A stretch of 64,000 nt of DNA from the NCBI GenBank assembly GCA_964016885.1, contig OZ024742.1:299770001-299834000 (forward strand). The letters are read 5' to 3'. The position numbers and the translations under genes were made by a program. Below the pieces are notes generated by a model that saw only the letters and a program-made list of their open reading frames with translations, had not been told where the DNA came from and searched no databases. Shown here in pieces: positions 2,313 through 62,907 of this stretch. The number at the start of each line of letters is the position of its first letter. Positions within the stretch are counted from its first letter, which is position 1. The DNA comes from Eledone cirrhosa (taxonomy: Eukaryota).

Positions 2313-2319
<7 letters not shown>
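2145..2319. repeat. Fold-back inverted repeat with about 59-bp arms, ending at (TA)n
   Basis: 2145-2203 is the reverse complement of 2261-2319 with one mismatch. Confidence 0.9.
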
Positions 2320-5114: not shown

Positions 5115-6958
5115 GTGTGTGTGTGTGTGCGTGCGCGCATATATATCTATACATATATATATAATTCGATCTACAAACATTCTGAAAGTGAACAGGGTAA
5201 ATATTAATGTCGAATTCATGCTCAAGGGCAGCAATTTCTTTTGGAGAGAAATGTTGATTGAATAGACACCAGTGCCTGGATAGTACTTTACTTGACAGAC
5301 CCAACGAAAGTTGACCTCAATAGCATGTGAACTCAGAAAGTAATCAGCCTTAACTAAATGCCGTAAAGCATTTTCTTCCATGCTCAATCGATTCTGTCAA
5401 TTCGTCACTTCTTTGACTAAATGCAGCTCACCCATGACTATCCTATAATATTCGCAAAATTCCTAAATCCATGAAACTTACAATTTATCAAATACCATGC
5501 GAAATATTTCTCCTACATCTCACCAGATTTATTCATCTTTTTCAGTCTAATCTCAAATAGACACGATCGAAAATCGATTGTTGAGCAAACAAATTGAGAA
5601 TAAATTATTCGTAAACCCAATTGTAAATCATAACTGCTCCTCAATTGCATATATATGTTTATCTATAAGTAAATATCTATACAAATTCAATCAGTAAACA
5701 TCGGATTAGTTGAAATACTAGATCAAGCTAGTCTCTTCATAATATCTACTTTGGCGCCTCATGTTTCTGGTTACGTGTTGCTCGGGAGTTCACTTTGACT
5801 TTTTAATATCAGATCAATGTAATGAAAACAAGTACTAGAGTGTGAGAAAATCATTTTATAAACATTCCCTCAAACTTGATGGTAATTATTATAGTTTATT
5901 ATCATGAGATAACTGTGGAAGTTGATGGTCTAATGGTTAGGGTATAGGGATCACAATCATAAAGTCTTAGAGGTCGAATCCCAGAAAGTGAGTAGCAGCA
6001 GCTGCTGCAGCAGAGTGCTGGATCTGAAACAAACTTGCGAAGTCATGTACTCTCAATCTCTTGACACCAGAGTAAACTAAAATAAGCTCCAGCCTTTTCC
6101 CAAATTATACAAGCATGGGAAAACAGGCATAAAAAAGACAACCGTCTCTTGTTCTCTCTCTCTTTCTCGCTTTCTCTCTCTCTCTCTTATTCTCTCTCTC
6201 ACTCTTTCTCTTCCCTTCTCTCTCTTACACACACACACTCTATCTCCCCCTCTCTCTCTCTTTATCTCTATCTGTCTATCTATGTATCTATCTCTATCTC
6301 TCTCATAAAATAATTCTCATTTTCTTTCACTTCATATTTCGGCTTTGCTCCATTCTAATTAATATTTTCTAATATGAACAGAAAGATTTCAATTTTTGGG
6401 GGAAAGGTACAGTTGATTAAATTGACCCTATCATTTCAGTGGTGCTTTATTTTATGGACCCTGACAAAATGAAAGACATACAGTTTTCGTCTTCTCAATT
6501 TTTTCACTCAGAAGGATTTAGCCAATCTGAAGGTATGACAAAGATCCTAATCCAAGGTAGCACACAGCGATGAAACCTGGAGCCTCTTGAATGAGAAACA
6601 AACGTTCTAACTACTCAGCCATATATGTGTTTATATATCTGTAATGTGATAGTAAGAATTATGATTTCTTGCATTTAAAACTATAAATATTTGTACAATA
6701 TTAAAAGAAATACTGAACTTAAATAAGATAATATTTCATCCGGAGAACAATTATATAGAAGAGGTGATATAGTTTCGCGTAAAAAAAATGCTGGATTTCA
6801 TCAGTATAAAGATGATAGCTTTCCATGAACAGCACAAAACATTTTAATGTTATTTGAGTTTATTTGATACTTTTAAAAGTCTAAATTACAGATTAAAATG
6901 TCTCGAATGGATTGAATTCTTTTAAATAGAAAATAGCAAATCAATAACTTTATTATTG

Positions 6959-7400
6959 AGAGCGGTGGATTGGCAGTTTCCGTAGAGTGCCAGAAAACAT
7001 GCTTTGCAGCATAGAGTTACGGCCCTTTATGTTTTGAGTTCAAATCCCGCCGAAGTTAGCTTTGCCTTTCATCCTAACGGGGTCGATAAAATAAAGCACC
7101 AGTAACATACTGAGGTCGATTTAATTGATTTTGCCCTCTCCTAAAATTGCTGGCTTTGTACCTATAGTAAAAATTATTATTAAGGGCGGCGGAGTGGCAG
7201 TATCGGAAGAGCGTCGGACAATATGCTTTGCAGTATAGAGTTACGGCCCTTTACGTTCTGAACTCAAATCCCGCCGAAGTTAACTTTACCTTTCATCTTA
7301 ACAAGATCGATAAAATAAAGCACCAGAATACACTGGTGTCAATTTAATCGACTTTCCACTCCCTTCTAATTGCTAGCCTTGTGCCTAAATCAGAAACCAT
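6959..7400 (+). mobile_element. Two tandem copies of tRNA-derived SINE family A (Nin/Deu-domain-like core)
   Basis: GGCGGTGGATTGGCAG head, GAGTTCAAATCCC B-box, and GCCTTTCATCCT..GGGGTCGATAAAATAAAG.ACCAGT core. Confidence 0.8.
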
Positions 7401-11875: not shown

Positions 11876-12036
11876 TAATAATCGGTCAGCGTTGCATAGC
11901 AAATCAGATTTCTAGACAATGTAGCTATTTTGCAAGTATTCTCATTTTGTATAAAATATGGTATTAATATGAAGAGACTCCTCTTATACATGTTTGGCAT
12001 ATGTTTGTTTGCGTTTAGTTTTCATCATTTCTGTAT

Positions 12037-12698
12037 GTTGCTTATTATTAGTTTCATAGGGCGGTGGATTGGCAGTATCGGTAGAAGGTCGGACGCCATG
12101 CTTTGCAGCATAGTTACGTCCCTTTACGATCTGAGTTCAAATCCCGCCGAGGTTGACTTTGCCTTTCATCCTTACGGGGTCGATAAAATAAAGTACCAGT
12201 AATGCACTGGGTAATTGCTGGCCTTGTGCCTAAAGTAGAAACAATTATTAGTTTCATCATTGAAACTAATAATTGTTTCTATTTTGGGCACAAGGCCAGC
12301 AATTATACCAGTGCATTACTGGTACTTTATTTTATTGACCTCGTAAAGATGAAAGGCAAAGTTAACCTCGGCGCGATTTGAACTCAGACCGTAAAGGGAC
12401 GTAATACTATGCTGCAAAGCATGGCGTCCGACCTTCTACCGATACTGCCAATCCATCGCCCTTATCATTGAAATTAATAATAAGCAACTTACTATAAGGA
12501 CTTTGGATTGGCAGTATCGGTAGAGGGTCGGACGCCATGCTTTGCAGCATATAGTTACGGCCCTTTACGATCTGAGTTCAAATTCCGCCGTGGTTAACTT
12601 TGCCTTTCATCCTTACAGGGTCGATAAAATAAAGTACCAGTAATGCACTGGGTAATTGCTGGCCTTGTGCCAAAAGTAGAAACAATTATTAGTTTCAT
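12037..12698. mobile_element. SINE family A cluster: tail-to-tail palindrome (12037-12488) plus a third plus-strand copy
   Basis: Copies at about 12059-12256 (+), 12261-12462 (-) and 12496-12698 (+). Confidence 0.85.
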
Positions 12699-14958: not shown

Positions 14959-16102
14959 CTAGCACCCGTCCGGCTGGCGCCCGGCTAGGTATACCTGCCC
15001 CCACCACTCCACTGAAAAGATACCACACACCCTTCCGTGTCACATTGTCCTTCCGACTCTCTCTCTCTCTCTGAATAACTAACACTTTAATTGTATCTCT
15101 CTCTCTCTCTCTGATTTCCCCTCCCTCTGTTTTTCTGTCTCTCTCTGTAGATGTGTGTGTGTAGTTTTCCTAATCTCTCTCTCTCTCTCTCTCTGTATAT
15201 ATTGAAGGGCGATACGGAAACTAAAACAGTGTTGTCATATAGAGAGTGAAGAGCGACAGAGAGAGTAAAGCAGTTAAATTATAGAGAGGGGGAATTATCT
15301 TACATACATACATACATATAAAGTATAGATATGCGTGTGTGTGTTTGTGTATGTGTATGTGTGTATGTGCATTGTTTTGATGTTATATTATGTGTGTGTG
15401 TGTATGTATGTGTGTGTGTTACTTATGCGAGCGACGACAGAAAGTATGTGTATTTGTGTGTGTGTGTGTGTGTTACGCATGCGAGCGACGACAGAAAAAG
15501 TGTGTGGGATACATACATTATTGGTTTCTTATATACGCACAAGGCCAGTGATTTTGTGGGAGGGGAAAGTCGATTAAATCGACCCCAGTGCGTGACTGGT
15601 ACTTTATTTTATCGACCCCGTGAGGATGAAAGGCAAAGTTAACCTCGGCGGGATTTGAACTCAGATCATAAAGGGCCGTAACTCTATGTTGCAAAGCATT
15701 GCGTCCGACCCTCTACCGATACTGCCAATCCACCACCCTGTGGGATACATACATTATTATATGTGTCTGTATTTTCGTTCTGCAACCATTATATTATGAT
15801 ATTTGTATTCAAATGATTTTAGATGTATGTATTACCTACTTGCTCGTCCCTCTCTCTCTCTCCTCTCTCCTCTCTCTCCCTCTTTAGATGTGTGTGTGTA
15901 GTTTTCCTAATCTGTCTCTTTCACTCTAAGAGCCTTTTGATGTATGTATTACCTGCTTGTGTGTTGACCGAATTTGAAGGAGGTTATCCTTTTGAAATAA
16001 AAATACATACGACGCTCCGGAAAGTAAAAGAGTGTTGTCATATAGAGAGCGAAGAGAGACAGAGAGTAAAGCAGTTAAATTAGAGAGAGGGTGAAAGAGG
16101 GA

Positions 16103-19194: not shown

Positions 19195-19292
19195 TACCTT
19201 ATACTATAGCCACAGAAAAGTGCAGAGAAGCCCGTAGTATATATATATATATATACTACGGGCTTCTCTGCAGTTTTCTGTGGCTATAGTAT

Positions 19293-19298
<6 letters not shown>
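19195..19298. repeat. (TA)9-centred inverted duplication with 43-bp arms
   Basis: 19195-19237 mirrors 19256-19298 with one mismatch and is followed by long (TA)n. Confidence 0.9.
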
Positions 19299-19374
<76 letters not shown>

Positions 19375-19456
19375 TTTATCCCGGGTTCAATCGGGGGTAA
19401 CCGCAGTAAGTAAGGTACTCAATATAGTGCAGAGTATAAATATTTAATATAGAAAT

Positions 19457-19507
19457 GGCTTCTACAGGACTAGAACTGTTTCCTTCGGGAGAAATCATCA
19501 GGAAGCC
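19457..19507 (-). ncRNA. Type I hammerhead ribozyme motif
   Basis: Minus strand: GGCUUC-CUGAUGA-UUUCUCCCGAAG-GAAA-CAGuucuagucCUG-UA-GAAGCC, with a 6-bp stem I. Confidence 0.8.
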
Positions 19508-19520
19508 CCTGAAATCATCG

Positions 19521-19571
19521 GGCTTCCTGATGATTTCTCCCGAATGAAACAGTTCTAGTCTTGTAGAAGCC
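19521..19571 (+). ncRNA. Type I hammerhead ribozyme motif (inverted partner)
   Basis: GGCTTC-CTGATGA-TTTCTCCCGAAT-GAAA-CAGTTCTAGTCTTG-TA-GAAGCC. Confidence 0.75.
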
Positions 19572-19575
19572 ATGT

Positions 19576-22548: not shown

Positions 22549-22613
<65 letters not shown>

Positions 22614-22614
22614 C

Positions 22615-22882
22615 GTATTTAAGAAAGCCACAACAATGCAAAGGGAAATCTCGAGGTAGGAAGTGAAATATAGATAGGAAAAACAGGTGAAAGTGAAAAT
22701 TGAGAGAGACAAAGATGAAAACAAAACAAAGGTAGAAGGGTTAAATCTCTACTACGGTAACCCTTCTACCTTTGTTTTGTTTTCATCTTTGTCTCTCTCA
22801 ATTTTCACTTTCACCTGTTTTTCCTATCTATATTTCACTTCCTACCTCGAGATTTCCCTTTGCATTGTTGTGGCTTTCTTAA

Positions 22883-22886
<4 letters not shown>
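22615..22886. repeat. Perfect hairpin palindrome (129-bp arms, 14-nt spacer) between two (TA)n tracts
   Basis: 22615-22743 is the reverse complement of 22758-22886. Confidence 0.95.
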
Positions 22887-22960
<74 letters not shown>

Positions 22961-23250: not shown

Positions 23251-25509
23251 CAGTGGTGTAGCTAGAGTGTGGCAAGCAGGGCACATGCCACGGGCGCCAT
23301 ATTTAGGGGGGAGCAATATTGATCTAGGTCGATTTACATCCATGTCGTTTTATCATTTTTAAAAATAAATCAAAAATGAAGCATGTGATTTCTTGATAGT
23401 CAACTTCCACGCCATGTCTAGTGCACTATACAGTGCAGATGTCTGATTTGACTTCACAAAAACGCCCCCCCCCCCCCTCCACACTGACATCAGGGTGGAT
23501 TGCAATTATGCGGGCGCTATTTTTAGCTATACATTGCAAAACAGCGGATACCTCACTTGACCTCACAACCACCCCACTACCCCCCCCACACACACACACT
23601 GACTGAAGGGACGTAGTTTTGGACGTGCAACTGGTGGACACGCAGGCGCTATTTTTAGCAATGCATTGCAATGACCAATACAAGATAATTATAATTATGA
23701 AGCTGGTTTACAAAACAAAGTAGTTTGTCTTTTACAACTGGTACATAAGACGTATAGAAAAGGTATCATAATACAAATGGCCAGATAGGATCGGATATCT
23801 TCTATTAGGAATTCAATTTGACTCCAGTTTAGATGGTTCAATGTTTTCTTCTATAATACAGTTCATCAGAATTTACTAAATCGTATCCAAAAAGCAAGAT
23901 ACTATGGTCTGCTGATTGATTCGACCCCTGACCAGGCGCACCGAGAACAACTGTCAAAAGTTGTGCGATATGTCGATGTTGATTTCAATATGAAGACGGT
24001 CGTTGTGAGGGAATCTTTTCTTGGATTCATTCAAGTAATCAAAAAAGATGCCGCAAGCCTTGTTGAAACAATCGTAAAAGAGCTAGAAAAAAGATGACCT
24101 ACCACTGCAGAAGTGTCGATCGCAGTGCTACGACAATGCTGCCATAATGTCTGGGCACCGCAATGGGGTTCAGCAGAGAATGAGAGAGAAGAAGAATTTG
24201 ATTCACTTCGTTAATTGCGATAACCATTCACTTAATCTGGCTGGTCTTCATGCAGCCAAAAACGATTCTGCTATGATGAACTTTTTCAGTTGCATTGACT
24301 CGTTATACAACTTTTTTTCTCGTTCAACACGACGATGGGTAGCCCTTAAAGAAGTTGCTCCAGTGGTTGTTAAATATCCTTCCGACACGCGGTGGAGTGC
24401 TAGATGTACCGCAGTCAGACCGGTGGCGAATTATTTGACGCTGATTGTTCAAGTTCTCGAAAGAATTAGTGATGATGAAACAGAGACATGCGAGAGTAGA
24501 AATGATGCCAGTAATCTCCATAATCGGATACTGAGTTATGAATTCCTGAACTTGATTGGATTCTGGAACACGATTCTCTCACGAATTGACCGGGTTCAAA
24601 AGAGACTTCAAGATCCAAAAATGAATTTTCACGATGCTGCAGCTGATATAGGAGCCCTTCAACTTTATTTTAAAGAAGAAGGAACATCCTTAATCCACGA
24701 GTCTCTTGAAATGGGCTTCGACCTCTGCCAGAAATGGAATGTGGATTTTCCGAGGAGGCGAGGAAGACGACAAACCAATACCGAAATTACTGAGGACGTC
24801 GAGGTGGCTGCCAGAAAAGAGATAGACAGAGCAATGCAAACTTCACTCAATCGTCTTCAAACAGAAATGGAAGAACGGTTTATTCGACTTAAGGAAACCG
24901 ACTCAAGTGTTGGCTTTCTTCTTGATGTCAACTATCTGTTTTATTTAGCTGCTCCTGATAACCTTGTCCTTAAACAAAGGTGCAACAGTCTTGCGGAACT
25001 ATACAACTCCAACATCGACGGAAAGCAATTGTATGAGGAAATCTTGGACTGCCGATCTTTGCTGGCTACTAGGACAGCTGACCCAATTTTAAAGCTGGAG
25101 GCACTTCTCCAATTCATCATACAATACGGTGATGAATGTGTTTTTCTCAATTTGCGAATCAGCATTCAAATAATGTTGACGATTTCTATTTCAATTGCCA
25201 GTTACGAGAGGTCGTTCAGCAAGCTGAAGCTAATACATTCGTATTTGCGAACCTCAATGGGCCAACAACGGCTGACTCACCTCGCCCTTTCGAGTGTAGA
25301 AATCGAAGAGTTTGAACGAACTGATTTCGAGGAAATTATCAACCAGTTTGCCTCATTAAAAGCCCGAAAAATCAAGTTGTAACCGTTTTTTGTTTTTTTT
25401 ATTATAAATTCTACCGCAATTTCGTCTTTGTGGATCTTGACTTTTTGATGGGGGGGGGGCACAATTTTGATGCTTGCCCTGGGCGCCGTTTACCCTAGCT
25501 ATGCCACTG
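23251..25509 (+). mobile_element. hAT DNA transposon, internally deleted
   Basis: TIRs CAGTGGTGTAGCTAG and CTAGCTATGCCACTG, subterminal GGGCGCC motifs, and a transposase inside. No perfect 8-bp TSD is visible. Confidence 0.9.
23860..25382 (+). pseudogene. hAT transposase (Tip100/ZMYM1-like group), frameshifted and N-terminally deleted
   Basis: DSTPD..HREQLS.VVRYV in the upstream frame, then QCYDNAAIMSG, CDNHSLNL (CxxH), TRWSAR and the dimerisation motif ERSFSKLKLI..YLRTSMGQQRL..LA in ORF 24147-25382. Confidence 0.9.
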
Positions 25510-26155: not shown

Positions 26156-26840
26156 TTTTAATATATATATATTTATGTGTATTTGGTGTATACATTCGTA
26201 TGTGTGCGGGTACAGGTGTTGTGTGGATTCTGTATGTGCGTGCGGGTTTGTTTGTTTTTTTGTGTGTACGTGCTTGTATTTGTATACCTATGACGAGTGT
26301 TTTCGCGTATGCTTGTGTTTATACGTATATGGATGCGTATTTATTTAATTTCAATTACCTCTGTATTTTATTTACTTTATTCTTAACTCTGAAGCCGAGA
26401 ATCATTCGGTTTCCTAGTTAGAATTTTAGTCTACGACTTCAGCTATACCATTTGCGTGGTTTTGTCTTTGCGCGCAATTGTTCTCCCCGATCCACATAAT
26501 GACGTATTATCTTCGTTTTTTTCCGTTCATTGCCAAAGAATGTCTCCATGAACCACCTAATAGAATATTAGTCTACGACTTCTTTTATACCATAAACGTG
26601 GTTTTGCGTGTAATTGTTTTTCATCGCTCCAAATAATGACGTATTATCTCCGTTTTTTCCCGTTCTTTGCCAGGGAGCGTTTCCACGAACCAAAGTATCG
26701 TCTTCCTGTCTTCCTCCGGTTGCAACGTTTTTTGAAATATTTACTTCTGCGTTCACAGATTGACTTTTTTAGTTTCAGAAGATCCTTTTAAGGGTGAAAG
26801 CAGCGATTCTTTGCTTAAACTTTAATCTGTTATTTTAATA
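25527..26840 (+). mobile_element. 5'-truncated Penelope-like element: inverted tail, GIY-YIG C-terminus, 3' UTR with hammerhead, TA tail
   Basis: From 25568 it reads RLKDNHTQYKLHWEILAKARSYNGNKGPCDLC, similar to the EN at 63569. 25527-25553 is an inverted copy of the 3' tail at about 26815-26840. Confidence 0.7.
26771..26821 (+). ncRNA. Hammerhead-like motif with CAGAAGA core
   Basis: AGTTT-CAGAAGA-TCCTTTTAAGGGT-GAAA-GCAGcgattctTTGC-TT-AAACT. Confidence 0.65.
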
Positions 26841-27238
26841 AATATATGAAATTTGAAAAGGGAAGTAAGGTTCTATACAAAACAGTGGTCCGAATTTGTA
26901 TAGTTTTATATATTTTACAGTCTCCTTCTCAACAAGGAAGATGAAAAAAACTTACCTTAACACTTTTAAATCTTTAATTTTTAGTTTTTAATCCTTATTA
27001 ATTATTTTTAATTGTAATACTCAAGATTTGATAAGATAGATTTTACTAATACATCGAAACCGGTAATACTTTATATACTTTATATACATTATAAAACTCT
27101 TTTTCTAAAAGAATTGTTCCTCTAATTTTTTCAATAATGCCACTTTGACGAATCAAAGAAAAAGGAATAAAAGAAAAACAGACCCTAAAATATATTTTCA
27201 GTGCTATTTCCAATCTCACCTTTTCTCTCTCTCTCTCC

Positions 27239-30648: not shown

Positions 30649-30699
30649 AATTTTTTGCTTAAACTTTAATCTGTGCTAATATTGAATATTTGCTCTGAG

Positions 30700-30743
<44 letters not shown>

Positions 30744-30794
30744 CTCAGAGAAAATATTCAATATTTGCACAGATTAAAGTTTAAGCAAAAAATT
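30649..30794. repeat. (TA)n-centred inverted repeat of a PLE-type tail
   Basis: TTTTTTGCTTAAACTTTAATCTGTGC...CTGAGGGTA-(TA)n-TACCCTCAG...GCACAGATTAAAGTTTAAGCAAAAAA, related to the 26800-26830 tail. Confidence 0.85.
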
Positions 30795-31881: not shown

Positions 31882-31931
<50 letters not shown>

Positions 31932-31983
31932 TTTCTGAATTTGTTTAGCAAGATTCTTTATCTGAAATCGTGTGTTGAAACCG

Positions 31984-32084
31984 ATATTGTTATACTTTGG
32001 GAGGGTCATGTTGCCAATAAGAAACACACGCACCAGTGGTGCGTGTGTTTCTTATTGGCAACATGACCCTCCCAAAGTATAACA

Positions 32085-32088
<4 letters not shown>
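31984..32088. repeat. Perfect palindrome (52-bp arms, 1-nt centre) ending at (TA)n
   Basis: Centred on 32036. A single-arm relative at about 4910-4958 also ends in (TA)n. Confidence 0.95.
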
Positions 32089-35781: not shown

Positions 35782-36432
35782 ACGATGGAACTGGTAAACG
35801 AAAACAAGACGGGATATGGTACAAATTGAGAAAATTAGTTTAATGCTCATGAGAAGTGTTAAGTATAACATTTTGGGCTTCGCCCTTCGTCGGAATCATA
35901 AGAATGGTTTAAGAAAAGACGCGGAAAATAAAAGAAAGAAAAGTTGTGGCAGGATTTCTCGCGCGTTCTAAAGGTAAACCTATTGGAGGAGAGGTGTATA
36001 GGGAAGTGATATACACATGTGTGTGTTTGTGTGCATACGCTGGATCTTCGTTGGTTCCAGTGACGAATGTTCCAGTAGTTTGAACAACAGAAAAGCCTGC
36101 TCGTGAAATCAACGTAGTACTTACCATAACGTAGTACTTAGGGAGATTCAACTTAACACAATACGTGACAAGATTGGCCCCTTGAATTACAGGTGTACAA
36201 CATTCTTCCAGGTGAGTAAACTGGGGCAAAGTGAAATAAAGTGTCTTGTTCAATAACACAACGCTCCATGTGTGTGTTTGTATGTATATATTAATATATA
36301 AGCAAAGGGGTATTTAATTTGTTGGTAATTCAACAAATATATTTATAACAGATTCGAAGCACTCGACAGATTTTTCTGGAGTATAACATCAATGATATTA
36401 ATAAATGGAAACTATATTTATAAAACCTTATT

Positions 36433-36493
36433 TATTCTATTATATATATTTCAAGGGTACCAAAACTTTGGTACGTTCTCATCAGATAAAATA
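36433..36493 (-). ncRNA. Minimal hammerhead ribozyme motif (left arm of palindrome 36388-36726)
   Basis: Minus strand: UAUUUUAU-CUGAUGA-GAACGUACCAAAGUUUUGGUACCCUU-GAAA-UAUAUA-UA-AUAGAAUA. Confidence 0.8.
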
Positions 36494-36620
36494 CAAAGTT
36501 TGTTTTATAAATATTGACATATCCAGGAATGAGACCTTAACGGTTCAAGACTATCAAGGTAAAACTTGAACCGTTAAGTTCTTCTTCCTGGTTATGTTTA
36601 TATTTATAAAACAAACTTTG

Positions 36621-36681
36621 TATTTTATCTGATGAGGGCGTACCAAAGTTTTGGTACCCTTGAAATATATATAATAGAATA
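36621..36681 (+). ncRNA. Minimal hammerhead ribozyme motif (right arm)
   Basis: TATTTTAT-CTGATGA-GGGCGTACCAAAGTTTTGGTACCCTT-GAAA-TATATA-TA-ATAGAATA, with an 8-bp stem I. Confidence 0.85.
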
Positions 36682-36800
36682 AATATGGTTTTATAAATAT
36701 AGTTTTCATTTATTAATATCATTGATATTACATATATATGTATGTATATATATTATATATATATATTTATATATGTATATATATATATATATATATGTGT

Positions 36801-38780: not shown

Positions 38781-38995
38781 CTCTGTTGCTCTAGTAACAT
38801 TTTTTCTTCTGGAAAATCTGATCTTGCAGCCAGGCTGGGACTTTGTGGGTGGCATATCGGCAGTAACAATGATGATAAACCGTCTGTGCTTTCGTGAAAT
38901 AAATATGTTTGTTTATATTTTGTTTTTGTGTATGCAAAAATATCAGTACACGAATATATAATTATATATATATATATATTAAAATAACAGATTAA

Positions 38996-39046
38996 AGTTT
39001 AAGCAAAGAATCGCTGCTTTCACCCTTAACGGGATCTTCTGAAACT
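38996..39046 (-). ncRNA. Hammerhead-like motif with CAGAAGA core
   Basis: Reverse complement of 42479-42529, within PLE-type tail 38978-39100. Confidence 0.65.
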
Positions 39047-39108
39047 AAAGAAATCAATCTGTGAACGCAGAAGTAAATATTTCGAAAAACGTTGCAACCG
39101 TATGAACG

Positions 39109-39268: not shown

Positions 39269-39410
<142 letters not shown>

Positions 39411-39533
39411 GGAGGTGAGTTTTATTGTAGTACAATAAAGCAATGCAGATATCGGATAAGAAGCACTCTACAGTTTGTAGGACTGGAGTATACATAATAT
39501 AAGATCAAAAGATGGTTAAAGGAGTTCCATGTA

Positions 39534-39600
39534 TTTTATTATGCGCATTTCAAAAACAAACATCATCATGCAATAATATTTGTGTTTTCATCAGATAAAA
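39534..39600 (-). ncRNA. Minimal hammerhead ribozyme motif (left arm of palindrome 39494-39807)
   Basis: Exact reverse complement of 39701-39767. Confidence 0.85.
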
Positions 39601-39700
39601 CAGGAGAACATGATATGAAGGCTAAAAAACACTTGTGGATAGTTGATTTAAAACTGCACTATCCACAAGTGTTTTTTAGCCTTCATATCATGTTCTCCTG

Positions 39701-39767
39701 TTTTATCTGATGAAAACACAAATATTATTGCATGATGATGTTTGTTTTTGAAATGCGCATAATAAAA
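39701..39767 (+). ncRNA. Minimal hammerhead ribozyme motif (right arm)
   Basis: TTTTAT-CTGATGA-[16-bp stem II with G-U pairs and one C-U mismatch]-GAAA-TGCGCA-TA-ATAAAA, with palindromic stem III. Confidence 0.85.
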
Positions 39768-39849
39768 TACATGGAACTCCTTTAACCATCTTTTGATCTT
39801 ATATTATATATATATATATATATATATGTATGAATATATGTATATATAT

Positions 39850-40533
39850 GTGTGTGTGTGCGTGCGGGAGTTTGATGGTGCCGCTGGTGGTGCTATTGCT
39901 TTTGCTTAACCCAAGGTCAGCCCTGACCAAGCAGAACTATGTTCAAAAGCATTCCTGCCGTGACCATCATGTCTTTTTGTATGAATCTCTAAGACTATAT
40001 TCTCTCTTCCTTTCTTTAATTTGAAGGATTTTTAACTGTTGTTTCTAGCATGTCTGTGTAGAGATTCCCTCTGTAGATTGTAGCATTGCTGATAAATATT
40101 GATGTTGATGGCGGGAGGAGGGGGGTATGATGATGGTGGCAGTGGTAGCAATGGCAATAGTTGCGTTGGTGGTGTGATTGATAATTGTGATGGTGACGGC
40201 AATGGTAGCACCACCACCACCACCACCACAACGCTACTACCACTGCCACCATCATCATACCCCCTCCTCCCGCCATCAACATCAATATTTATCAGCAATG
40301 CTACAATCTACAGAGGGAATCTCTACACAGACATGCTAGAAACAACAGTTAAAAATCCTTCAAATTAAAGAAAGGAAGAGAGAATATAGTCTTAGAGATT
40401 CATACAAAAAGACATGATGGTCACGGCAGGAATGCTTTTGAACATAGTTCTGCTTGAACAGGGCTGACCTTGGGTTAAGCAAAAGCAATAGCACCACCAG
40501 CTGCATGATCAAACAACTCCCGCACGCACACAC
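39850..40533. repeat. Long inverted duplication (about 300-bp arms, 88-nt spacer)
   Basis: About 39850-40148 mirrors 40237-40533, flanked by (TA)n/(CA)n. Confidence 0.9.
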
Positions 40534-41915: not shown

Positions 41916-42324
41916 AGGGCGGTGAATTGGCAGTATCGGTAGAGGGTCGGACGCCATGCTTTCCAGCATAGTTACGTCCCTTTACGATCTGAGTTCAAAT
42001 CCCGCCGAGGTTGACTTTGCCTTTCATCCTTACGGGGGTCGATAAAATAAAGTACCAGTAATGCACTGGGTAATTGCTGGCCTTGTGCCTAAAGTAGAAA
42101 CAATTATTTAAAAGATTAAAGACATTATTTAGGGCGGTGGATTGGCAGTATCGGTAGAGGGTCGGACGCCATGCTTTGACGCATAGAGTTACGGCCCTTG
42201 CCATTCTGAGTTCAAATCCCGCCGAGGTTAACTTTGTCTTTCATCCTTATGGGGTCGATAAAATAAAGTACCAGTAATGCACTGGTTAATTGCTGGCCTT
42301 GTGTCAAACGTAGAAACAATTATT
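41916..42324 (+). mobile_element. Two tandem SINE family A copies
   Basis: Same head, B-box and core as 12059. The flank ATTATTTAAAAGATTAAAG is duplicated around the first copy. Confidence 0.8.
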
Positions 42325-42478
42325 TAAATATTCACTTCTTTAAAATTTTCAAATGTCAACACTTCCTGTCATACAACATTCCTAACGTCTTCACGAACCA
42401 AAGTATCATCTTCCTGTTTTCTTTCGGTTGCAACGTTTTTCGAAATATTTACTTCTGCGTTCACAGATTGATTTTTTT

Positions 42479-42529
42479 AGTTTCAGAAGATCCCGTTAAG
42501 GGTGAAAGCAGCGATTCTTTGCTTAAACT
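42479..42529 (+). ncRNA. Hammerhead-like motif with CAGAAGA core
   Basis: AGTTT-CAGAAGA-TCCCGTTAAGGGT-GAAA-GCAGCGATTCTTTGC-TT-AAACT, 16 nt before (TA)n. Confidence 0.65.
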
Positions 42530-42569
42530 TTAATCTGTTATTTTAATATATATATATATATATATATAT

Positions 42570-42787
<218 letters not shown>

Positions 42788-42836
42788 TGTACAGATATTT
42801 TTGCATACACAAAAACAAAATATTTATTTCACGAAA

Positions 42837-43620: not shown

Positions 43621-45936
43621 GGAGTTAAATATTCTAGGAATATCTTAGAAGCATTGATGATATAATGTTTGATGTTTAGCCCTAGGTCAGCCTTAAGTGA
43701 GTAGATCTATAATGGTTTCTTATATAGGCACAAGGCCATCAATTTTGTGGGAGGGGAAAGTCGATTAAATCGACCCAGTGCGTGACTTCATTTTATTGAC
43801 CCCGTATGGATGAAAGGCAAAGTTAGCCTCGGCGGGATTTGAACTCTGATCATAAAGCAGATCTATAATAAAGTGTATTCAAACCATGACCATAAAATAA
43901 TGTTTTTCTGCACTACATTATCCAATGTCTCATTGTTAAAGGTGCTACTGTGTAGTTATAGTGTCGGATTAAAAATGCCTGGGTGTGTTGGTTCCGGTTC
44001 ACAGTGATACAAAATCAAATCCTTCAGACCTCAAATTTGCCTTTCATCTATTCGAAGTCGATAAATAAAGTATCACTCCAGTACTGTGACTGGCTCTTAC
44101 TCTTTCTTTATCTATCTAGCTTTCTCTGGTTATGTAGATTTCTTTCTATCTCTTTTTCTCTGGGAAAAATCGTCTATGATCCACCCTCTCAAAGGCAACC
44201 GTTTCCAAATGATCCGGCTGGATGCCCAAACCAGACCTAATGAGCTCATGGATGTTATACAACTATCATACTCTTGGTTCCCTGTCGGTTGGCTTTTACC
44301 TTATAACCTGTCCATCGGTTAGTTCTTTAAGCATTTTAACCATATGTCAGTAATACCGGTGCTGTGCTCTCTCGGTCCAAAGAAGTAGCAGCTCTACTTG
44401 AAGCGACTCTTTAATCACCGAGCTATGCACTCTATCGAGTAACGTTACTCCAAAGAGCCATCAGGGACCCCATTTCAGCCGCTTGTATTCTCGATTGTAT
44501 TCTTTCGATAATTACCCAATATTCGAAACCATATATATAATATAAGGTTTCGAATATTCATTTATATGTTGCTGATCTATGTTCTCTATAACACTAAACA
44601 GCTCTATCATACAAAATATATTTCCTTTTATTTTTTTCTTCGATATGATGTGGTTAGGGCTAGGTTTATAGTTCTGAAATAAAATGCAACATAACGTAAA
44701 CCATTACGTAAAAGACATTCAAAAAGTAAGTAGGAGACTTCCGACGTTCTTAACCCTTAGACCACATCCCTACACACTGCTATCGGGGCGGAGTTAACTA
44801 GGCGTAAGTGAGATCCCCGCGAAGTGGAATGGCTGTCCCTGTGTGTCACCCTCAGTTCCAACGACAAGGGTTCCAGCTGATCGAACAACAAACAGTCTGC
44901 TCACGAATTTAACGTCAAGTTGCTGAGTATTGCACAGACAAGTGTATCATTAAGGTAATTTCTAAGAGAAATTCAGTGAGACACGGTGTGTGACAAGGCT
45001 TTCCTTCTTAATTACTAGAACAGTTCATTTCTGCTACCTGGAAGGACATTAGAAATGTAAAATTGAGTGTGTGTTGCTCAAAAGAACCAAGCATTCCCGA
45101 GAATCGAACTCACTACAATGCGTTCGTGAGCCGAAAACTGTAACTCGTAAGCCGCGGGGCTTCACCATTGTAATTTTAGACGATTACAATGACGTGGAAA
45201 ATCTTCCAATATAAACAAATAAGGATTTCGCCTTACAACCACATGATTCTAGATTCAGTTCCGCTCTGTGGCACATTGGGCAAGTATCTACTACCATAAA
45301 CTCAGGCAGACCAATGCCTTGTGAATGAAATTTGGTAGATGGAAACTGCAGAAACATGTCGTGTATATATATTGAGCCATCAAGTATGAAATTTGTAGAA
45401 ATTTGTGTTTTGTCTATAACTTTCTACAAATTTCATACTTGACGACCCAAAATATATATGCGCGCGCGGGTGTGTATGTGTGTGTGCGTACGCGCGTATG
45501 TGCGTATGTGCGTATGTGCATGAGTGTGTGCGTATGTGTGCGTGTGTGGGTGCGTTAGTACGTGTGCACGCGTGTGTGTGTGGGTGTGTGGGATTATGCC
45601 CACGCTTATGTTTGAGTTTGAGTTTATCCCTCATGAATTAGCAGTTCGACAAAAAGAGTTCGATGAAATAAGTACCCAGGTTGATATGATTATGTAAATA
45701 ATGGCGGTGCCTCAACATAAAGCAGTCAAATGTCAGAAGCCAGTAATAGCGTAAAAGAATAGACTACAATGCTTTTTATCATCCGAAGAATTTAGTTTCT
45801 ATGGTTATTAAGTAACAAAACACACGAGGTTATAGCAGGGTAATGAAAAACGAACAGAAGCCTAATGGATATATGGATATAAATTATTTAGTGTTGTTTA
45901 TAGAAAAAATATAAGAAACAATGCATATACGTGCAT

Positions 45937-50569: not shown

Positions 50570-53500
50570 AGGCTGATATAGAGAGAAGGCCCATTCACTC
50601 GGGCCATTCTCGCTACTTTCACCCATCTTTCATAAAACTTGCTGGGGCAGAGCACCTCTCTCTCCATTCTGATCCTTCTTCTAAAGTGTTACTTGAAAAA
50701 AAGACCAGTTGTTGGCCGGAGAGAAAGGTGTCTGACCTCAGTCCTTTCAACCTTGTCCACCATACAACTTCTTTCGCCATGGCTATCACACAGAGGAAAA
50801 CCGCCTCTCCTTCGTTTTTGAAAGGGGGAGGCGGTTTGATCGTGACAATGTTCTCGGTGGTCAACCGGATTGGTCCCACCCGCGACAGTAGTCGTTCTAC
50901 ATAGCCCCACAGGTCAGCAACGCCCGGGCAGTGTACGATTGCGTGTGCGACGGTTTCCTCGTCACGCACGCATCTTGGACAGATCTTCTTCGAGGGGTCC
51001 CTACCCGGGCGCCCGTGTCTGTAGAGCTTGTCCCGAACGGGTAGAGCTCCTCGGTAACATTGCCAAGCCAGGGACTTTTGGAAGTTGTCCATCGGTCCCG
51101 GGCCAAACGTCCTACCGAACAGACTGGCCAGCTCGTATTCCTCCATGCCCAGAGCCTCTCCGAGAGCGTCGTCGCACTTACTGCGCACCAACCCTCTATA
51201 GAATGTTGAGGTTGAGTCTCCACTGATTGCCGGATCCGCTTGCCAGAGGGCCGTGAGCGCCTGGGCACATTCAATGTGCCAGTCGCCCACTTTTCTCGGT
51301 CTTTGCTTGACCCAGGATTGCAGCTCGGTGAGTGAGACGAGTCTCGGAAAGGCTCGCCTCACAAACAGGGCCCACACCTGCTGACCGGTGAGGAATACCT
51401 GGAGGTGCCGTAGCCTTAATACGTGTCTACGCATCGTCAGCCACGGCATCCCCAGCCCTCCGTTCGAAGAGTGTTGACAGCAGATGGATCTTCTCACTAA
51501 AGGAGCCCGCTTCTTCCAAAGAAATCGGAAGAGCGCGCGCTCCATTTTGGCGAGTGTTTTCTCTGGGCAAGGCGCGACGGTCAAGCGGTAGTAGATGACG
51601 GACGCTATATAAGCGTTCGCCACCTCCGCTCGACCTTTGAGGGATAGTTTGCACTCGGCCCACTTCTGGGCGAGTGCAAAGACCTTGCCCGTTACCTCGT
51701 CCCAGTTTTTCTCCACCTGGAGGTCTGGTCCGAACCAGACCCCGAGCAGCTTCACCGGTCCCTCCGTCCAGCGTCCGACGATACCGTCGGAGGGCATCGT
51801 TTTGCCCCTCCACGTCCCGAGTTAGAAACCGACGGACTTGTCCCGGTTCAGCTTGGCTCCTGTGAACCTTTCATATTCCACCAGTAAGGTGCCGATCTGC
51901 TCGATTTCGGAGGCGCACGACACCATTACTGTAAAACGTCATCGGCGTAGGCCGACACCGCTTTCCGCAATCCCGGTTCCAAGGGGATGCCCTGAAACAG
52001 CTCCAGCTGTAGTGGCTCGAGAGCCAGCACATACAGGAGGGAGGAGAGAGGGCATCCCTGTCGAATGGATCGCGTGATTTGGAACGGCTCCGAGAGGTAG
52101 CCGTTCACCTTGACCCTCGAGCTGGTGTTGCTGCTGTGCATTGCAGCAATCCAGCCCCTGAAAACGGGTCCGAAGCCTGCCGCCTCGAGAACTGCATCCA
52201 GGTACCGATGGCCAACCCTATCGAACGCCTTAGATTGATCCAAGTTGATCAGGGCCCCACCAAAGCCGGGTTCGTTCCCTACCCTCTCTACGATGTATCG
52301 CATGAGGTGGAGGTTGTCGTGTATGGACCTGGACGGGATTGCGCATGTCTGCGCTTCTCCCACCAGGTTCCTGACGACAAGCGCCAACCTCTTCGCTAAC
52401 ACCTTGGCCAAAATCTTTAACTCTGTGTTTAGCAGAGTTATGGGCCTGAAGTTATCTATGTCATCCCCCTTGTTCTCGTCCTTCCTCACTAGCGTGACTA
52501 CGCCCTTGGTCACAGAACTGGGAATTCTCCCGTTCTGTTGCCAGTTGCCAGTTGCAGTAGACCGCCTCGAGGAGACCGGAGAACAAGCCCGGCATCGCTA
52601 CATAAAGTTCGTATGGTAGACCATCGAGACCCGGAGATTTGCGTTTGCCGCATTGGCTCAGCGTTTCCCCTATTTCAGCGGCTGAAATCGGCCTCTCGCA
52701 GGACTTCGCCTCCCCGTCCGAGAGCCGCGCCAGACCGTCGAGGTATGGACCGAAATCCATGGCTCCACCCGGCCCGCCGCCCCTCCCGAACAGTCGTGCA
52801 AAGCGCCGTTAAAAGGCTGCGCTCATCCGCTCAGGTTCAAGGATCACGCGTCCATCCTGGTCCTTCAAAGACCGAATCGTGGACTTGTTTCCACTTTTTG
52901 CCTCTGTCACTCGGGCCCAGCTAACAGCTTTGGCTCCCTCGTTACCCAGAGCACGTATTTTACTCCTGACAACGCAGCCCTCGTGCTTCGCATCAAAGAA
53001 CTGGTCTAGGGCCGTTCTTGACGCCAGCACGCCGGCCACGTTGCCACTCCTAATCGCCTCTTCTACTCTATTTGTTAATTCCCTTTCAGTTCTATTCCTA
53101 TCTGATGCTAATTCCCGACTAAAACCTATCGATTCTATTCTAATTTCTCTCTTGAGAGAGCCCCACCCCCTGTTGTTGACAATTGCCCCCGTCAAACGCT
53201 GCTTAACTAGTGTGCTAATCCGCTTACTGTAAGCTTTGTTTGTCGGTAAAGACAAGTTTAGCTTCCAGTAACCGGGTCCCTGTCTATGAGTTCTATCAAG
53301 GTTGACCACTCCGGTCACCAACTTGTGATCCGAATAGTCAACCATGAACATTCGTGGACAGCTTAATATGTCCCTATCCTTATTTCTAACTAGGAACCTA
53401 TCTAGGTATCACCTAGATGTTCCGCTGCGATTACTCCACGTCCACCGTGCCACAGTCGGAAAATCTAGTCGATATCTATCGGCCAGATCAAATCGGCCGA

Positions 53501-54007
53501 TTAACCGTTTGAGGCTGTTACACCCCCCCCTCTATCGGGACATGCCCCTACATAGTCCCAACGTGCATCCAGGATACCGTTCCAGTCTCCCACTAAAAGC
53601 AAGGAGCGAGACGTTCCCAGGAAATTCTCCAGGCGTCGGAAGAAGTCCGGTCGCGGTGTCCCAGATAGGGCATACGCTGCCACCAGCCTGAAAGCTCCAC
53701 CTTCACCACTGCCGACGTCTAAAACCACCAGTCGACCCTCCGAGTCCAGGTGTACCTTCTGTGAGGCAAGACCCAGGTATTTTCGCAGCAGAACGACAAC
53801 CCCACCCCCACCCCTCGGCTGACAGAGAGATGCGTAGATCTCAAAGTCGTCGAAGATGGGGGCCAGTTGGCGCTCGCTGCTGATCCTGGACTCGCAAATA
53901 ACCATTACATCCACTCTGTGCGACCTGCGGTCATTTAAGAGTTTGCCCTGTTTCCAGGACATCCCCAAGCCGCGTGCATTCACACATTCAACTCTTATGT
54001 TGGCCAT
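50570..54007 (-). pseudogene. LINE ORF2 (APE endonuclease, reverse transcriptase, zinc-binding C-terminus), broken into at least 5 ORFs
   Basis: NARGL, ICES, GDWN and YSDH (APE); KSPGLDGLPYELY, FRPITLLN, LDQSKAFDRV, RQGCPLS and AYADD (RT); GGLG and CPRC..EETVAHAIVHC. Confidence 0.92.
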
Positions 54008-54049
54008 GTTGGTGCTGAAGAGTTAAAAAGGAAGAGAAAAGGAAATTAC

Positions 54050-55850
54050 TTACCTCTTCGTCTCCTGGGGACCAGGCTGCACAATTTCCATGGGGGTGTT
54101 GGAAGGGTTGTTTGGTGGGGTGGTGGTTTGTGGTGGGGTGAGGACATCAGTGTGTGGTGGGATTAGGGTGTTTGGTGGGGTGTGGGTGTCTAGTGTGGGG
54201 GTGGGGAAACATCTCAATAGGACGCTGTTATGTGGTTTGGTGCAATTGGTTCCCACATGCATTGGATGGTTCTTTTTCAATGTTACATAGGTTTCCGTTG
54301 GGACCCTAATCATCATTAGGTGCGGTTTGTTCGCTGTGTAGGTGAAAGTGATCCCTTCGGTTTCCACTGAAGGGTTATTTTCTATCGCTTTCATCAACGT
54401 TTTATTTTTCTTGTTAATGTATGTATAGAGTTTTTGTTGTGTTGTGTTTGTTTTTGTTTGTTGTTCTTGTGCGTGTTTGCGTTTTGTAGTACGTGTTATG
54501 TTTTGGGGAGGGGTGGATTTTTTTGTTTGTGATGTTTGTTCTGTTTGTGCTGCTGGTTGTGTGTTTGTGGCATTTTTGTTAATGTGGTGCCTTTTTTTTT
54601 CCTTTTCACCTGTTGAAAGGGTTCTCCCTCGTCGTCACTGGGTGACGTTGATACGGAGTCCTCTTCCGTGTTGTTGGGGAGGGGTATATTTTGGGGTTTT
54701 GTTGTGGTTGCTTTTGTATTTGTTTTAGGTGGGGAGGGGTTGGGTGGAACAGTGTTTTGTGTTGTTATTTTTCCGTGTTGTTGTGGTTGTTGTTGTTGTT
54801 GTGGTGGTGGTGGTGGTGGTGGTGGTGGTGGTGGTGGTGGTTGTGTTGTTGTGTTCGGGGTTGGCAGAAGAGCCTTTTTTTTTACTCGTTAATTGAACAC
54901 AGGCAGCCCTCAGGTGACCCCTGCTTAAGCATTGGTAACATGACGGCCGCCTTCCCTTCACTGAAATGTTTATATAAGTTAGCCCGTCCAGAGGCACGCG
55001 TTGTGGGTTATTCGCTATTCGTTCTGGGCTCATTTGCACCAGAACTTCTACGGTGGTCCCACCAAATACACCTCCGGAGGACTTTCCTATTGAAATTATC
55101 TTGTCTTCGTCAAAGTCAATGATTCCACATAGTATCCACCAAATATTTACATTTGGTGTGATACTCATTATTTTTATTCTTTGTGTCCTTTTCCCCCTGT
55201 ATGTGCGGAAAAAGGTGAAGCGGGGGAACACAATGGGTGATACCGAGTACTTTTGAGCTGTTGACTGGTTGTTCATTAGCACCGAAATGCTACCAAACAG
55301 TTTACCTTTTTGTATGAAGGTTAAGTCCTTTGTGATAATTGAGCTGGTTTTCTTGTTTCGTTCGAAATTGTCCTGAAAACCACAGTTTTCAGGACAGCCT
55401 CTCTACGTAATTCCTGTGGAGAATTGATGCTAAAAGCACCGTTTTCGCCAAAAGTCACGAATTGTTTTGCGTCTTGTAATAGTTGTTTAGCATTTGTTAT
55501 GTCTATTGGCGTGTATAGTTCGTTTTTTTTTTACAGTCTGTGCGAACGTTGTTTTGGTGTTGTTGTCTTTTTTGTTGCTGTTGTTGTTGTCACTGTTGGT
55601 GATATTGTTCATGTTTTCCTTGGTGTTGTTATTGTTGCAGTTGTTGGTTGTGGTGTTATTGTCATTGTTCTTGTTGTTGGTGCTGGTATTATTTACCGGG
55701 TTTGGTTCCGTGGTTTCAATATTTTCAACGTTTTTCGATAATGCGAGAGGGGAAGGCTGCAAGCTTTGTACTCCTACCTTCCCTCCACCATTTTTCTTAG
55801 TGAACGTGGTACTCACGACAGTGTGCAAGGTTGAAATGGCATCCCTTGTT
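54050..55850 (-). pseudogene. LINE ORF1 (gag-like, CCHC zinc knuckle, Asn/Thr low-complexity tracts), frameshifted
   Basis: KGRRPSCYQCLSRGHLRAAC in ORF 54725-55282 and TFAQTVK in the N-terminal piece. Confidence 0.75.
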
Positions 55851-58400: not shown

Positions 58401-59323
58401 TCCATTTCACATCTGGTATGGATTTCATATCTAATCTACTTTTCATACCTACATTCCATATTTATGCTGCTTGTCATCTTGAGAAAATGTCTTTTACTAT
58501 ATAGCTTCGGGTCGACCAAGATTTATGAGTGAAATTGGATAGAGGGAAGTTTGGAAGCCCGTCATTTGAACTGTACCTTTAATTAAAACGTCCTGCTGTG
58601 TTACATTGAATCTCACATTAAATTAAGTTATTTGTAACTATCGGTAAAGCCTCGGACAACCTGCTATATGGCATAGGGTTACGCTTCTTTGCGATCTAAG
58701 TTCAAATCCTGCCAAGGTTAGCTTTGACTTTCATCCTCACAGGGTCGATAAAATAAAGTACCAGTAATGTACTGGGGTCGATTTAATCGACTTTCCCGAC
58801 CCCACAAATAGCTGGCCTTGTGCCTGTAGTTGAAATTATTATTTGTAAACATGTCTTTGAAACACTCAGTCACATGTTTATTCAATAAATATGCTATTCC
58901 TTTGACAAAACATCTGAAACACTCGTCGTCGAAACTGAGAGAGGTCCATTCCAAAACTATCGGATGGACAGTACCTTTAATTCATACATTGTGTCCTACC
59001 ATAACCTGGCCCTAGTGTGTTAGCAGGGTCCACTTTGTTAGAATCCAATATAACAACTACCAATATAACAACCACTAACATAACAACAACAACTATAACA
59101 ACCACCACCAGCACCACAACTATAAAAACCACCACATTAACATCCACAACCACAGTAATCAAAACCACCACCACTACCAATATAACAACCACTAGCATAA
59201 CAACAACAACAACAACAACAACAACGACTTCAGATTTAACAAATCTAGTACCATTGAGAAAAATGTCCGTCTGTTTAAATTTAATTATTTTTACACAAAT
59301 AGAGAAATATTATTTCTTCAGAT

Positions 59324-59513
59324 CGCGTGGATTGGCAGTATCGGTAGAGCGTCGGACACTATTCTTTGCAGCATAGAGTTATGGCTTTTTACGTTCTGCT
59401 TTCAAATCCTGCCGAGGTTAACTTTACTTTTCATCCTTACGGCGTCGATAAAATAAAGTACCAGTAATGCACTGGGGTTATTGCTGGCCTTGTGCCAAAA
59501 CTAGAAACAATTA
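59324..59513 (+). mobile_element. SINE family A (further copies near 43713-43856 and 58640-58842)
   Basis: GTGGATTGGCAGTATCGGTAGAG..TTTCATCCTTACGGCGTCGATAAAATAAAGTACCAGT. Confidence 0.8.
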
Positions 59514-59813
59514 TCATTCTTATTAGCTTCATAAGATAATAAAATACATTTAATTGTATACTTAATGCAATATAGACAAGAAATCAATAAATCCTAATTG
59601 TAGTTTATTAATTAATTATCGTTTTCTAGCAGCTTGTAAGAACAGCGTTTGAAGGTTTTTTAATTAATGAATCATCTTATATTACTTCATTGACTTACTC
59701 GTCGTTCTAAAACAACTGTTCTGTGGCCATGCATAAAGTTTAATAAGTGAAAAGTAAGGTGGATGTAACTAAACGTATCTGTTTGATAATGGGAGTGTGT
59801 AATCCACTATATA

Positions 59814-59891: not shown

Positions 59892-61274
59892 ATCATCATC
59901 ATCATGATCATCATCGTTTAACGTCCGTGTTCCATGCTTGCATGGGTTTGGACGGAGGATTTTCCCACTTGAGGCAAGAGTGGTTATCTTGCTCGCATAG
60001 GACTATCTGGCGGGTTTTCTACAGCTGGATGCCCTTCCTAAAACCAACCACATTTACAGTGTGGGGCTGGGAGGTTTTTACCGTGTTGCCTACACGGCCA
60101 GATTACAGCGTGAACTGTGTGTTTTTTTGACGTGACACCTACACGATCTCATTTGTTTCGGCCTTGATGTTGTGGCACCAACATAACTTTACATTGAAAG
60201 GGGTGGATGGGGTGGGGTGGGGGGGGTGTATTTTGTTAGAGATGCCTACTGACTGTAGTAGGTTTTACTTTGTATTTAGGTAAGGCGGGTCTTCTCTTTT
60301 ACTGAGTACCGCCAAAGGTCTCGGTCCAGTGACATTGTCTTGGTGAGGTGTAAGTGTGTGAGGTCGGAATTTATCAGCTCGTCCCAGGTTTTTCTGGGTC
60401 TGCCTATTCCGTTGCTACCGTCTATCTTTATTGCCCTGCACTTTGTTATACAGCTATCGTCCTTCATGCGCATCACGTGACCATACCAACGTAGCCTTCT
60501 CTCGAGTAAACAACATCTGATCCCTCTTATTTCTAATGTTTTCCTTAGTTCGTTTATGCTTTGCCGTTCACGTATATTACTATTACACATCCAGCGGAGC
60601 ATGCAAGCTTCGTTCCTCTCTAGTCTGCGTATATCCTCTGCACACAATGCCCAGGTCTCACTGCCGTGCAACATTGCTGTTCGTATGCAGGCATCGTACA
60701 ACCTGCCTTTCATTTTTAGGGAGAACCCTTTAGCGGCTAATAGTGGTATGAGCTCTCTGAACTTTTTCCACCCAGTTCTGACTCTAGCTACTGTACTTTC
60801 AGAGCACCCTCCCCCACTGCTGATTTTATCACCCAGGTAACGGAAGCTGTCCACTATTTCTATAGAACCCTCTGCGCAGTTGAAAGAGCTAGTATTCTGT
60901 GGGCACTTGCTGCTACTTATTGCCCCAGAACACCGGCCACATGTAAAATCTATGTTCTTAGTTAGCTTACCTGTGATCCCACTACATCTTTTATGCACCC
61001 AAACTTTGCATTTCGGACACAAAATGGAGTTTCTACCTACGCCTTTCCTACACTCTGAGCATGGCCACTTCCCGGAGGGGACCGCCGCCTTATTTTCTTT
61101 CTTACAAACTAGAACTTTAGTCTTAGCCAGGTTAATTTTAAGGCCTTTTGATTCTAGGCCGTGCTTCCATGTTTGGAATTTCTTCTCTAGCTCGGCCATT
61201 GTTTCAGCTATGAGCGTTAGATCATCTGCGTATAGGAGTTCCCATGGGCAGCCGGTCTTGAACTCCACTGTTAT
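59892..61274 (-). mobile_element. 5'-truncated RTE-clade LINE (RT C-terminal half intact, (GAT)n tail)
   Basis: ORF 60276-61289 contains CPWELLYADD, GLKINLAKTK, FRYLGD, MLHGSETW, RRLRWYGHV and GRPRKTW. A plus-strand (CAT)n tail lies at 59892-59914. Confidence 0.9.
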
Positions 61275-62396
<1,122 letters not shown>

Positions 62397-62664: not shown

Positions 62665-62769
62665 TATATATATATCATGTATAAACATTCATATATATAT
62701 TAATATATATTTACATACATATATATGGATCCCGTGTCCGCGAATCGCCAGGAATCTTAGCCGAGAATG

Positions 62770-62851
62770 ACTCTCTGATGAAGAAAGGATTCTCCATGGT
62801 CTCCATTTGGAGACTATGTATATCCCCTTTCAGAAACTAATTAGTTAGAGT
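62770..62851 (+). ncRNA. Minimal hammerhead ribozyme motif
   Basis: ACTCT-CTGATGA-aGAAAGG..CATGGTCTCCA/TGGAGACTATG..CCTTTCa-GAAA-CTAATTAG-TT-AGAGT, with perfect stem I and palindromic stem III. Confidence 0.8.
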
Positions 62852-62907
62852 GAAATTTAAGTTAATTACTATAATTAAGTTAATTACTATAATTTTCCTA
62901 TTTTACG

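Follow-up and report, generated by a model that had tools for sequence, protein, structure and literature searches.

A hammerhead-bearing palindrome in the Eledone cirrhosa genome, probably left by the insertion of an abundant Penelope-like retrotransposon

We analysed a 64,000-nucleotide stretch of Eledone cirrhosa DNA, hereafter the window, in which two 150-nt arms face each other as exact reverse complements at 150 of 150 positions (Table 1). The 14-nt spacer that separates them is not self-complementary, and no further copy of the 150-nt arm occurs elsewhere in the 64-kb window. The original prediction had described this structure as a perfect 314-bp palindromic element with a (TA)n tract on its right. 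The palindrome is indeed exact, with arms and spacer of the predicted lengths, but the full unit is in reality about 397 bp long and asymmetric. Its left arm runs on for about 83 nt to a second (TA)n tract, whereas the right arm stops directly at (TA)n without any tail. Target-site duplications were not discernible inside the (TA)n sequence. The predicted lack of an open reading frame was borne out, the longest ATG-started frame in 39411-39807 having 31 codons. The tail was also considered as the start of an open reading frame and rejected; its 28-codon open frame found a sole match among 1.84 billion proteins, an unrelated tandem-repeat protein. The absence of differences between the arms bounds their divergence at 2% or less (95%) and therefore supports a young structure, unless the arms have been homogenised. 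Of the "young active member" originally envisaged, the youth thus stands but the activity does not, for the element is a stump without an open reading frame.

Table 1. Coordinates of the palindromic unit, its flanks and the other tailed palindromes of the window. PLE, Penelope-like element; X1, the deep public run described in the text.
Feature	Position	Strand	Basis or remark
(TA)n run left of the element, likely the target microsatellite	39377..39407		Sequence; family tail ends enter (TA)n in X1
One-sided 3' tail, ~83 nt, may start at 39408; on the minus-strand copy only	39411..39493	-	Sequence; high copy in X1
ATACTC..GAGT motif opening the tail, common to four palindromes of the window; candidate cis signal	39465..39491	-	
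Left arm, read as the tail-bearing, 5'-truncated copy of the element's 3' end (pLTR-like)	39494..39643	-	150/150 complementarity; X1
Type I hammerhead motif, PLE type; predicted cleavage after 39540	39534..39600	-	
2-nt overlap where the inverted copies meet; either strand reads as family sequence	39642..39643		X1 loose-end consensus
14-nt spacer, in which the plus-strand copy continues upstream with its native sequence; no designed loop	39644..39657	+	
Right arm, read as the inverted, 5'-truncated, tail-less copy reaching (TA)n	39658..39807	+	Complementarity; X1 loose ends at 39489
Type I hammerhead motif; predicted cleavage after 39761	39701..39767	+	
(TA)n run right of the element	39808..39827		Sequence
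Tailed palindrome	2070-2319		Spacer 57 nt; no hammerhead in arms
Tailed palindrome	19372-19573		Spacer 11 nt; two type I hammerhead motifs unrelated to the 39494-39807 pair
Tailed palindrome	36299-36726		Spacer 15 nt; two type I hammerhead motifs unrelated to the 39494-39807 pair

The window holds several other repeats. A dispersed SINE-like repeat of about 190 nt, which we take to recall the tRNA-derived SINEs of octopus, is arranged forward-inverted-forward at 12033-12697, and further copies lie near 6950-7400, 15519-15740, 41916-42324, 43709-43857, 58639-58843 and 59327-59514. Its SINEs and microsatellites together give the window the look of octopus DNA. ARAGORN returned no genes. Pieces of a second dispersed repeat adjoin (TA)n (38915-39106 matching 42419-42823, 26678-26847 and 30649-30794). 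Broken non-LTR retrotransposons and a hAT transposase fragment occupy 50619-55402 (-), 60276-61370 (-), 8378-10287 (-) and 24087-25382 (+), the domains of the broken retrotransposons being an endonuclease with reverse transcriptase (RT) and zf-RVT in one case, a PHD-like finger beside an RT in another, and in a third no more than a weak match to RT. At its 5' break, the second of the loci listed is overlapped by an inverted repeat (61275-61652).

Each arm of the palindrome carries one type I hammerhead core. A relaxed descriptor scan detected nine hammerhead motifs in the 64 kb, compared with a mean of 0.3 (maximum 2) in 20 order-1 resamples, and three palindromes hold six of the nine. Single motifs occur outside palindromes at 1928-1985 (-), 3143-3214 (+) and 62769-62852 (+), the first and the last standing shortly before (TA)n. 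The plus-strand motif of the palindrome consists of a 6-bp helix I, a distal helix pairing 39692-39700 with 39770-39777, CUGAUGA, a long helix II, GAAA, a palindromic helix III and a UA site. All parts of the catalytic core were found, namely CUGANGA, GAAA, A15.1-U16.1, a UH site, and helices I and II, for which folding predicts pair probabilities of 0.76-0.88 and 0.52-0.97, respectively. Helix III comprises 2 bp and a palindromic loop, with a predicted monomer pair probability of 0.001; its eight letters form a perfect palindrome worth a predicted -10.5 kcal/mol when paired with a second copy.

The original prediction had called the two hammerheads identical and canonical. A type I core is present in each arm, but the canonical form, which combines a helix III stable as a monomer with a G10.1-C11.1 pair, was found on neither count, pair 10.1-11.1 being A-U. 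Rfam searches returned no match at the gathering score, and of the weak matches at E<=10, 75 and 13 in number, none was to a hammerhead family. Folding stability alone lends no support, as the z-score of a single arm is -0.61, and purifying selection on the core did not reach significance, although the 13 listed variants spare all 31 positions of the core and of helices I and III (P=0.15). The motifs are of the PLE type, with a palindromic helix III and a predicted need for a dimer; on its own, such a ribozyme is predicted to be inactive. Because the two motifs lie on opposite strands, they cannot form a dimer in cis. Nor does a separate AATAAA follow the ribozyme, as had been supposed. AATAAA begins at 39761, the predicted cleavage base, and its remaining letters make up the 3' strand of helix I; lying inside the ribozyme, it was rejected as a separate poly(A) signal.

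The geometry holds as anticipated: whichever strand were transcribed, folding predicts a 150-bp hairpin for the read-through RNA, at -245.6 and -246.6 kcal/mol. Within this predicted hairpin the tested ribozyme pairs drop to 1e-27 or less. The proposal that such double-stranded RNA silences cleavage is correct insofar as the hairpin is predicted to abolish the ribozyme helices. However, silencing by the antisense arm is on these models a side-effect, because the lone ribozyme is predicted to be inactive already. The hairpin itself would be a by-product of the insertion anatomy.

To place the palindrome among its relatives, we turned to public sequencing data. Part of the stretch was present in 20 of the 24 public runs listed, whose 16 organism labels may in part reflect trace DNA, through which a high-copy repeat can show up. 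No RNA run is listed among those with the stretch, which says nothing either way about expression. Four runs (X1, X4, X22 and X23) were compared over the tail, left arm and spacer (39411-39657). X22 and X23 yielded 0 reads and hence provide no test; X1 is the single informative deep run of the four. In X1, 3,171 contigs lay on the tail and arm, 885 of them at 99% or more identity and 1,282 at 95-99%. Summed contig depth, which is not copy number, had medians of 0.74 million for the tail and 1.17 million for the arm in this run, which may be the source sample. It reached 0.55-2.3 million over tail plus arm (278,000-2,275,000 over the arm) versus 403 and 388 over the spacer, so that the junction amounts to at most 0.15% of the neighbouring bin. 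In X4, four contigs cover the tail and arm and none the spacer. Judged by X1 depth, the arm is therefore common and the whole palindrome rare, the very outcome that the original prediction named as refuting its strand-symmetric mobile unit, which is not supported; the one-sided tail likewise speaks against strand symmetry. Seven of the eight X1 contigs listed have depths of 11-39 and the eighth 242, all below the roughly 400 over the junction, so that the 39494-39807 junction may nevertheless be present more than once, a few times.

Two readings that treat the palindrome as a mobile entity bear on these counts. In the first, the tailed palindrome itself would be a non-autonomous unit, without strand symmetry, that a PLE enzyme re-copies intact from hairpin RNA. 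The identical arms and a junction depth above that of most listed single contigs agree with this, and so does a minus strand that has both ribozyme and tail, given that passages of PMC3846280 describe pLTRs alone as mobilising sequence in trans. We nonetheless rate it very unlikely in view of the scarcity of the junction in X1 and its absence from the four contigs of X4; moreover, most contigs run into other upstream sequence, and the predicted 150-bp hairpin would bury the arm. In the second, the arms would be the long terminal inverted repeats of a MITE or foldback DNA transposon, and the hammerhead would have been captured by it. Perfect inverted arms, no open reading frame and TA on both sides are what such an element would show, but the family includes the one-sided tail, the complete unit is not repeated at the depth of the family, and the arms enter other upstream sequence. 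We give this reading scarcely any weight.

The loose ends of the X1 contigs define the two halves more precisely. Among the loose ends listed, 41 contigs leave the palindrome behind 39643, and their consensus (agreement 0.82, median length 12, the distal letters from few contigs) opens with 16 letters that are the reverse complement of 39642-39657, after which it departs from the palindrome into other upstream sequence. The spacer is therefore the native upstream sequence of the plus copy. This copy spans 39642-39807 (166 nt), and the minus copy 39643-39411 (233 nt), with an overlap of 2 nt. Another 32 contigs among the listed loose ends exit the family at 39489, where their consensus closes on (TA)n, and tails that end at 39414 and 39421 likewise enter (TA)n; the family thus has two defined 3' ends. 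At 39570, seven contigs keep the 3' half of the ribozyme and carry a different helix II, which hints at a sister subfamily.

An inverted-repeat scan of the window, which listed 31 repeats, brought up four palindromes with a one-sided extension opened by ATACTC..GAGT, namely the 39411-39807 unit and three sisters (Table 1). Their tails measure about 65-85 nt (the tail end of 36299 was read by eye), and three of the four have short spacers of 11-15 nt. The palindromes at 19372-19573 and 36299-36726 appear as older stumps of other families, and the hammerhead pair at 19455, whose helix III is longer (about 5 pairs), might fold as a monomer. As the palindrome at 2070-2319 is tailed but lacks a hammerhead, the layout is independent of the ribozyme. 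The tail motif is not enriched by count, with 4 observed versus 3.04 expected and 35 of 100 shuffles reaching 4. All four matches, however, start just beyond an arm end, at a distance of 2-18 nt, and point away from it, in a zone that makes up 1.4% of the window strand positions; as the motif was defined from three of the four elements, 2070-2319 is the sole independent test of position (p about 0.014). Thus, it is the position of the motif rather than its count that seems to carry the information.

The sisters also bear on whether the locus might be a fold-back artefact of the assembly or library. Perfect arm identity would be expected of such an artefact. Yet the sister arms mismatch at differing rates (1/59, 2/54 and 10/162) and are therefore of different ages, and short-read contigs of X1, possibly the source sample, give depth over the spacer. 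We hold an artefact to be extremely improbable.

It might also be argued that a single PLE stump came first and that a second, inverted copy of it was added later at the fragile (TA)n by fold-back repair independent of the element. Inverted repeats without the tail motif, on or flanked by microsatellites, do exist in the window, for example at 2498-2772, 19195-19298, 30649-30794 and 39870-40514; in view of these motif-free palindromes, fold-back duplication of a general kind also takes place close to microsatellites, and not every inverted repeat in the window need arise by a PLE route. But in all four elements with the tail motif the inversion ends 2-18 nt from it. Furthermore, the tail-less copy includes the spacer and so reaches 14 nt further at its 5' end than the tailed one does; it is hence no copy of the tailed arm alone. 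Such later repair has, in our estimate, only a slim chance of being correct. The repeat at 39870-40514, which adjoins the palindrome, has 255-nt arms (98%) and a 135-nt spacer and runs into mirrored microsatellites. Two other palindromes, at 31930-32088 (1-nt spacer) and 22552-22949 (14-nt spacer), are bounded by (TA)n, and the former extends on one side only, by about 54 nt that lack the tail motif.

We consider it highly probable that the palindrome is the insertion scar of a high-copy PLE, an anatomy of a known kind, in which one hammerhead-bearing 3' end is likely represented twice, by 5'-truncated copies that lie head to head in (TA)n, one of them tailed. The features expected of a PLE were found: a pLTR-like end with a type I hammerhead and a short palindromic helix III, a 5'-truncated copy with an adjacent inverted 5'-truncated copy and a family that extends upstream of both arms, a tail of about 83 nt at one end only, and a (TA)n microsatellite as target. 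Two metagenome scans gave no match for a parent open reading frame encoding RT or GIY-YIG, and the 13 window open reading frames scanned contained no GIY-YIG domain, only non-LTR RT, endonuclease, hAT and finger domains. It is by its anatomy alone that the element is assigned here, as probably a PLE stump.

The insertion may have proceeded as follows. A PLE reverse transcriptase-endonuclease acting in trans would nick both strands of the (TA)n target, and cDNA would be primed twice, one end lying at the end of the tail and the other at an internal start just before the tail. The tail-less cDNA would halt after about 166 nt, and its last two bases would either snap back, with 14 nt looped out, or anneal to the second cDNA. 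The strand copied back from there could then pair with the tail-bearing cDNA, with repair closing the gap. The mirror half would in this way be made at insertion, and the tail would have to derive from the second cDNA. Read as one molecule, the minus strand of the window consists of the tail-less cDNA, the 14-nt loop and a self-copy starting at the 2-nt overlap, an arrangement that fits either snap-back or annealing to a second cDNA. Because three of the four tailed elements have short spacers, snap-back would seem preferable to two independent truncations. DNA folding does not predict a 2-bp snap-back, which would therefore need the help of an enzyme, and the 2-nt overlap is weak evidence for it.

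As an element the palindrome is ordinary, a real feature with a known explanation. A bolder reading would have several unrelated PLE families leaving palindromic stumps of 100-400 bp here, with shared ATACTC..GAGT tails of 65-85 nt, some of them re-mobilising intact as hairpin-RNA elements and supplying perfect double-stranded RNA genome-wide for editing or for small-RNA silencing of their parents; we regard it as unlikely. What the locus does offer is material for deciding between snap-back and twin priming by counting junctions in one assembly: the family is young and of high copy, its spacers are short, its junction overlap can be read, and the motif that opens the tail is shared across families.

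Our literature search, which extended neither to Repbase and Dfam nor to most subscription journals, listed no article specifically about this family or the motif of its tail. The anatomy has close published counterparts. Passages of Craig et al. (2021; PMC8557442) describe PLE insertions in which a 5'-truncated copy in inverted orientation adjoins the 5' end, with a tail of 30-40 bp that is often at one end only and with (TA)n targeting, and state the formation of the inverted repeats and tails as an open question. Arkhipova et al. (2013; PMC3846280), in the parts drawn on here, report palindromes at inverted junctions, interpreted as self-priming, and antisense small RNAs on PLE copies. With the insertions described in these two sources our element shares the head-to-head inverted copy, the extension at one end and the short junction overlap, and with Neptune, Hydra and Naiad (PMC8557442) the (TA)n target. 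Unlike the published insertions covered there, both copies are stumps (166 and 233 nt) without an open reading frame, and the tails of 65-85 nt, about 83 nt in this element, exceed the published 30-40. Since the same source reports hammerheads in Hydra and other canonical PLEs and their absence from Naiads, the clades Neptune or Hydra are more likely than Naiad.

The ribozymes find their nearest match in the PLE hammerheads of Cervera and de la Pena (2014; PMC4209133). The portions of that paper used here ascribe dual minimal hammerheads, 100-700 bp apart on opposite strands, to truncated PLEs, and report a palindromic helix III, with no cleavage by the single minimal motif and low-level cleavage by dimers; hammerhead dimer cleavage is also covered in sections of a review (PMC6765202). 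Our motifs resemble those in the intact core, the 6-bp helix I, the long helix II, the palindromic helix III suited to a dimer and the pairing on opposite strands. They differ, as far as sequence tells, in having A-U at 10.1-11.1 in place of the highly conserved G-C described there, and in a longer helix II (3 + 12 bp).

The two defined 3' ends, with and without tail, recall PAc, the Poseidon element of Anolis carolinensis (Frangieh et al. 2024; PMC11167929). According to passages of that study, both target strands are cut and extended in vitro, two RT starts bound the tail, and the hammerhead is dispensable for insertion in vitro. An AT-rich target and a hammerhead upstream of the ends are further points in common, whereas, unlike in PAc as described there, no start of an open reading frame could be linked here to the ribozyme or the tail; inversion is not a subject of the passages used. 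Finally, non-LTR retrozymes, which portions of a preprint (bioRxiv 10.64898/2026.07.22.740005) present as tandem units with hammerheads and a proposed derivation from PLEs, are likewise non-coding and equipped with type I hammerheads. In contrast to their head-to-tail tandem arrays with a hammerhead in each unit, however, our locus holds one head-to-head pair, the only occurrence of its arm in the window.
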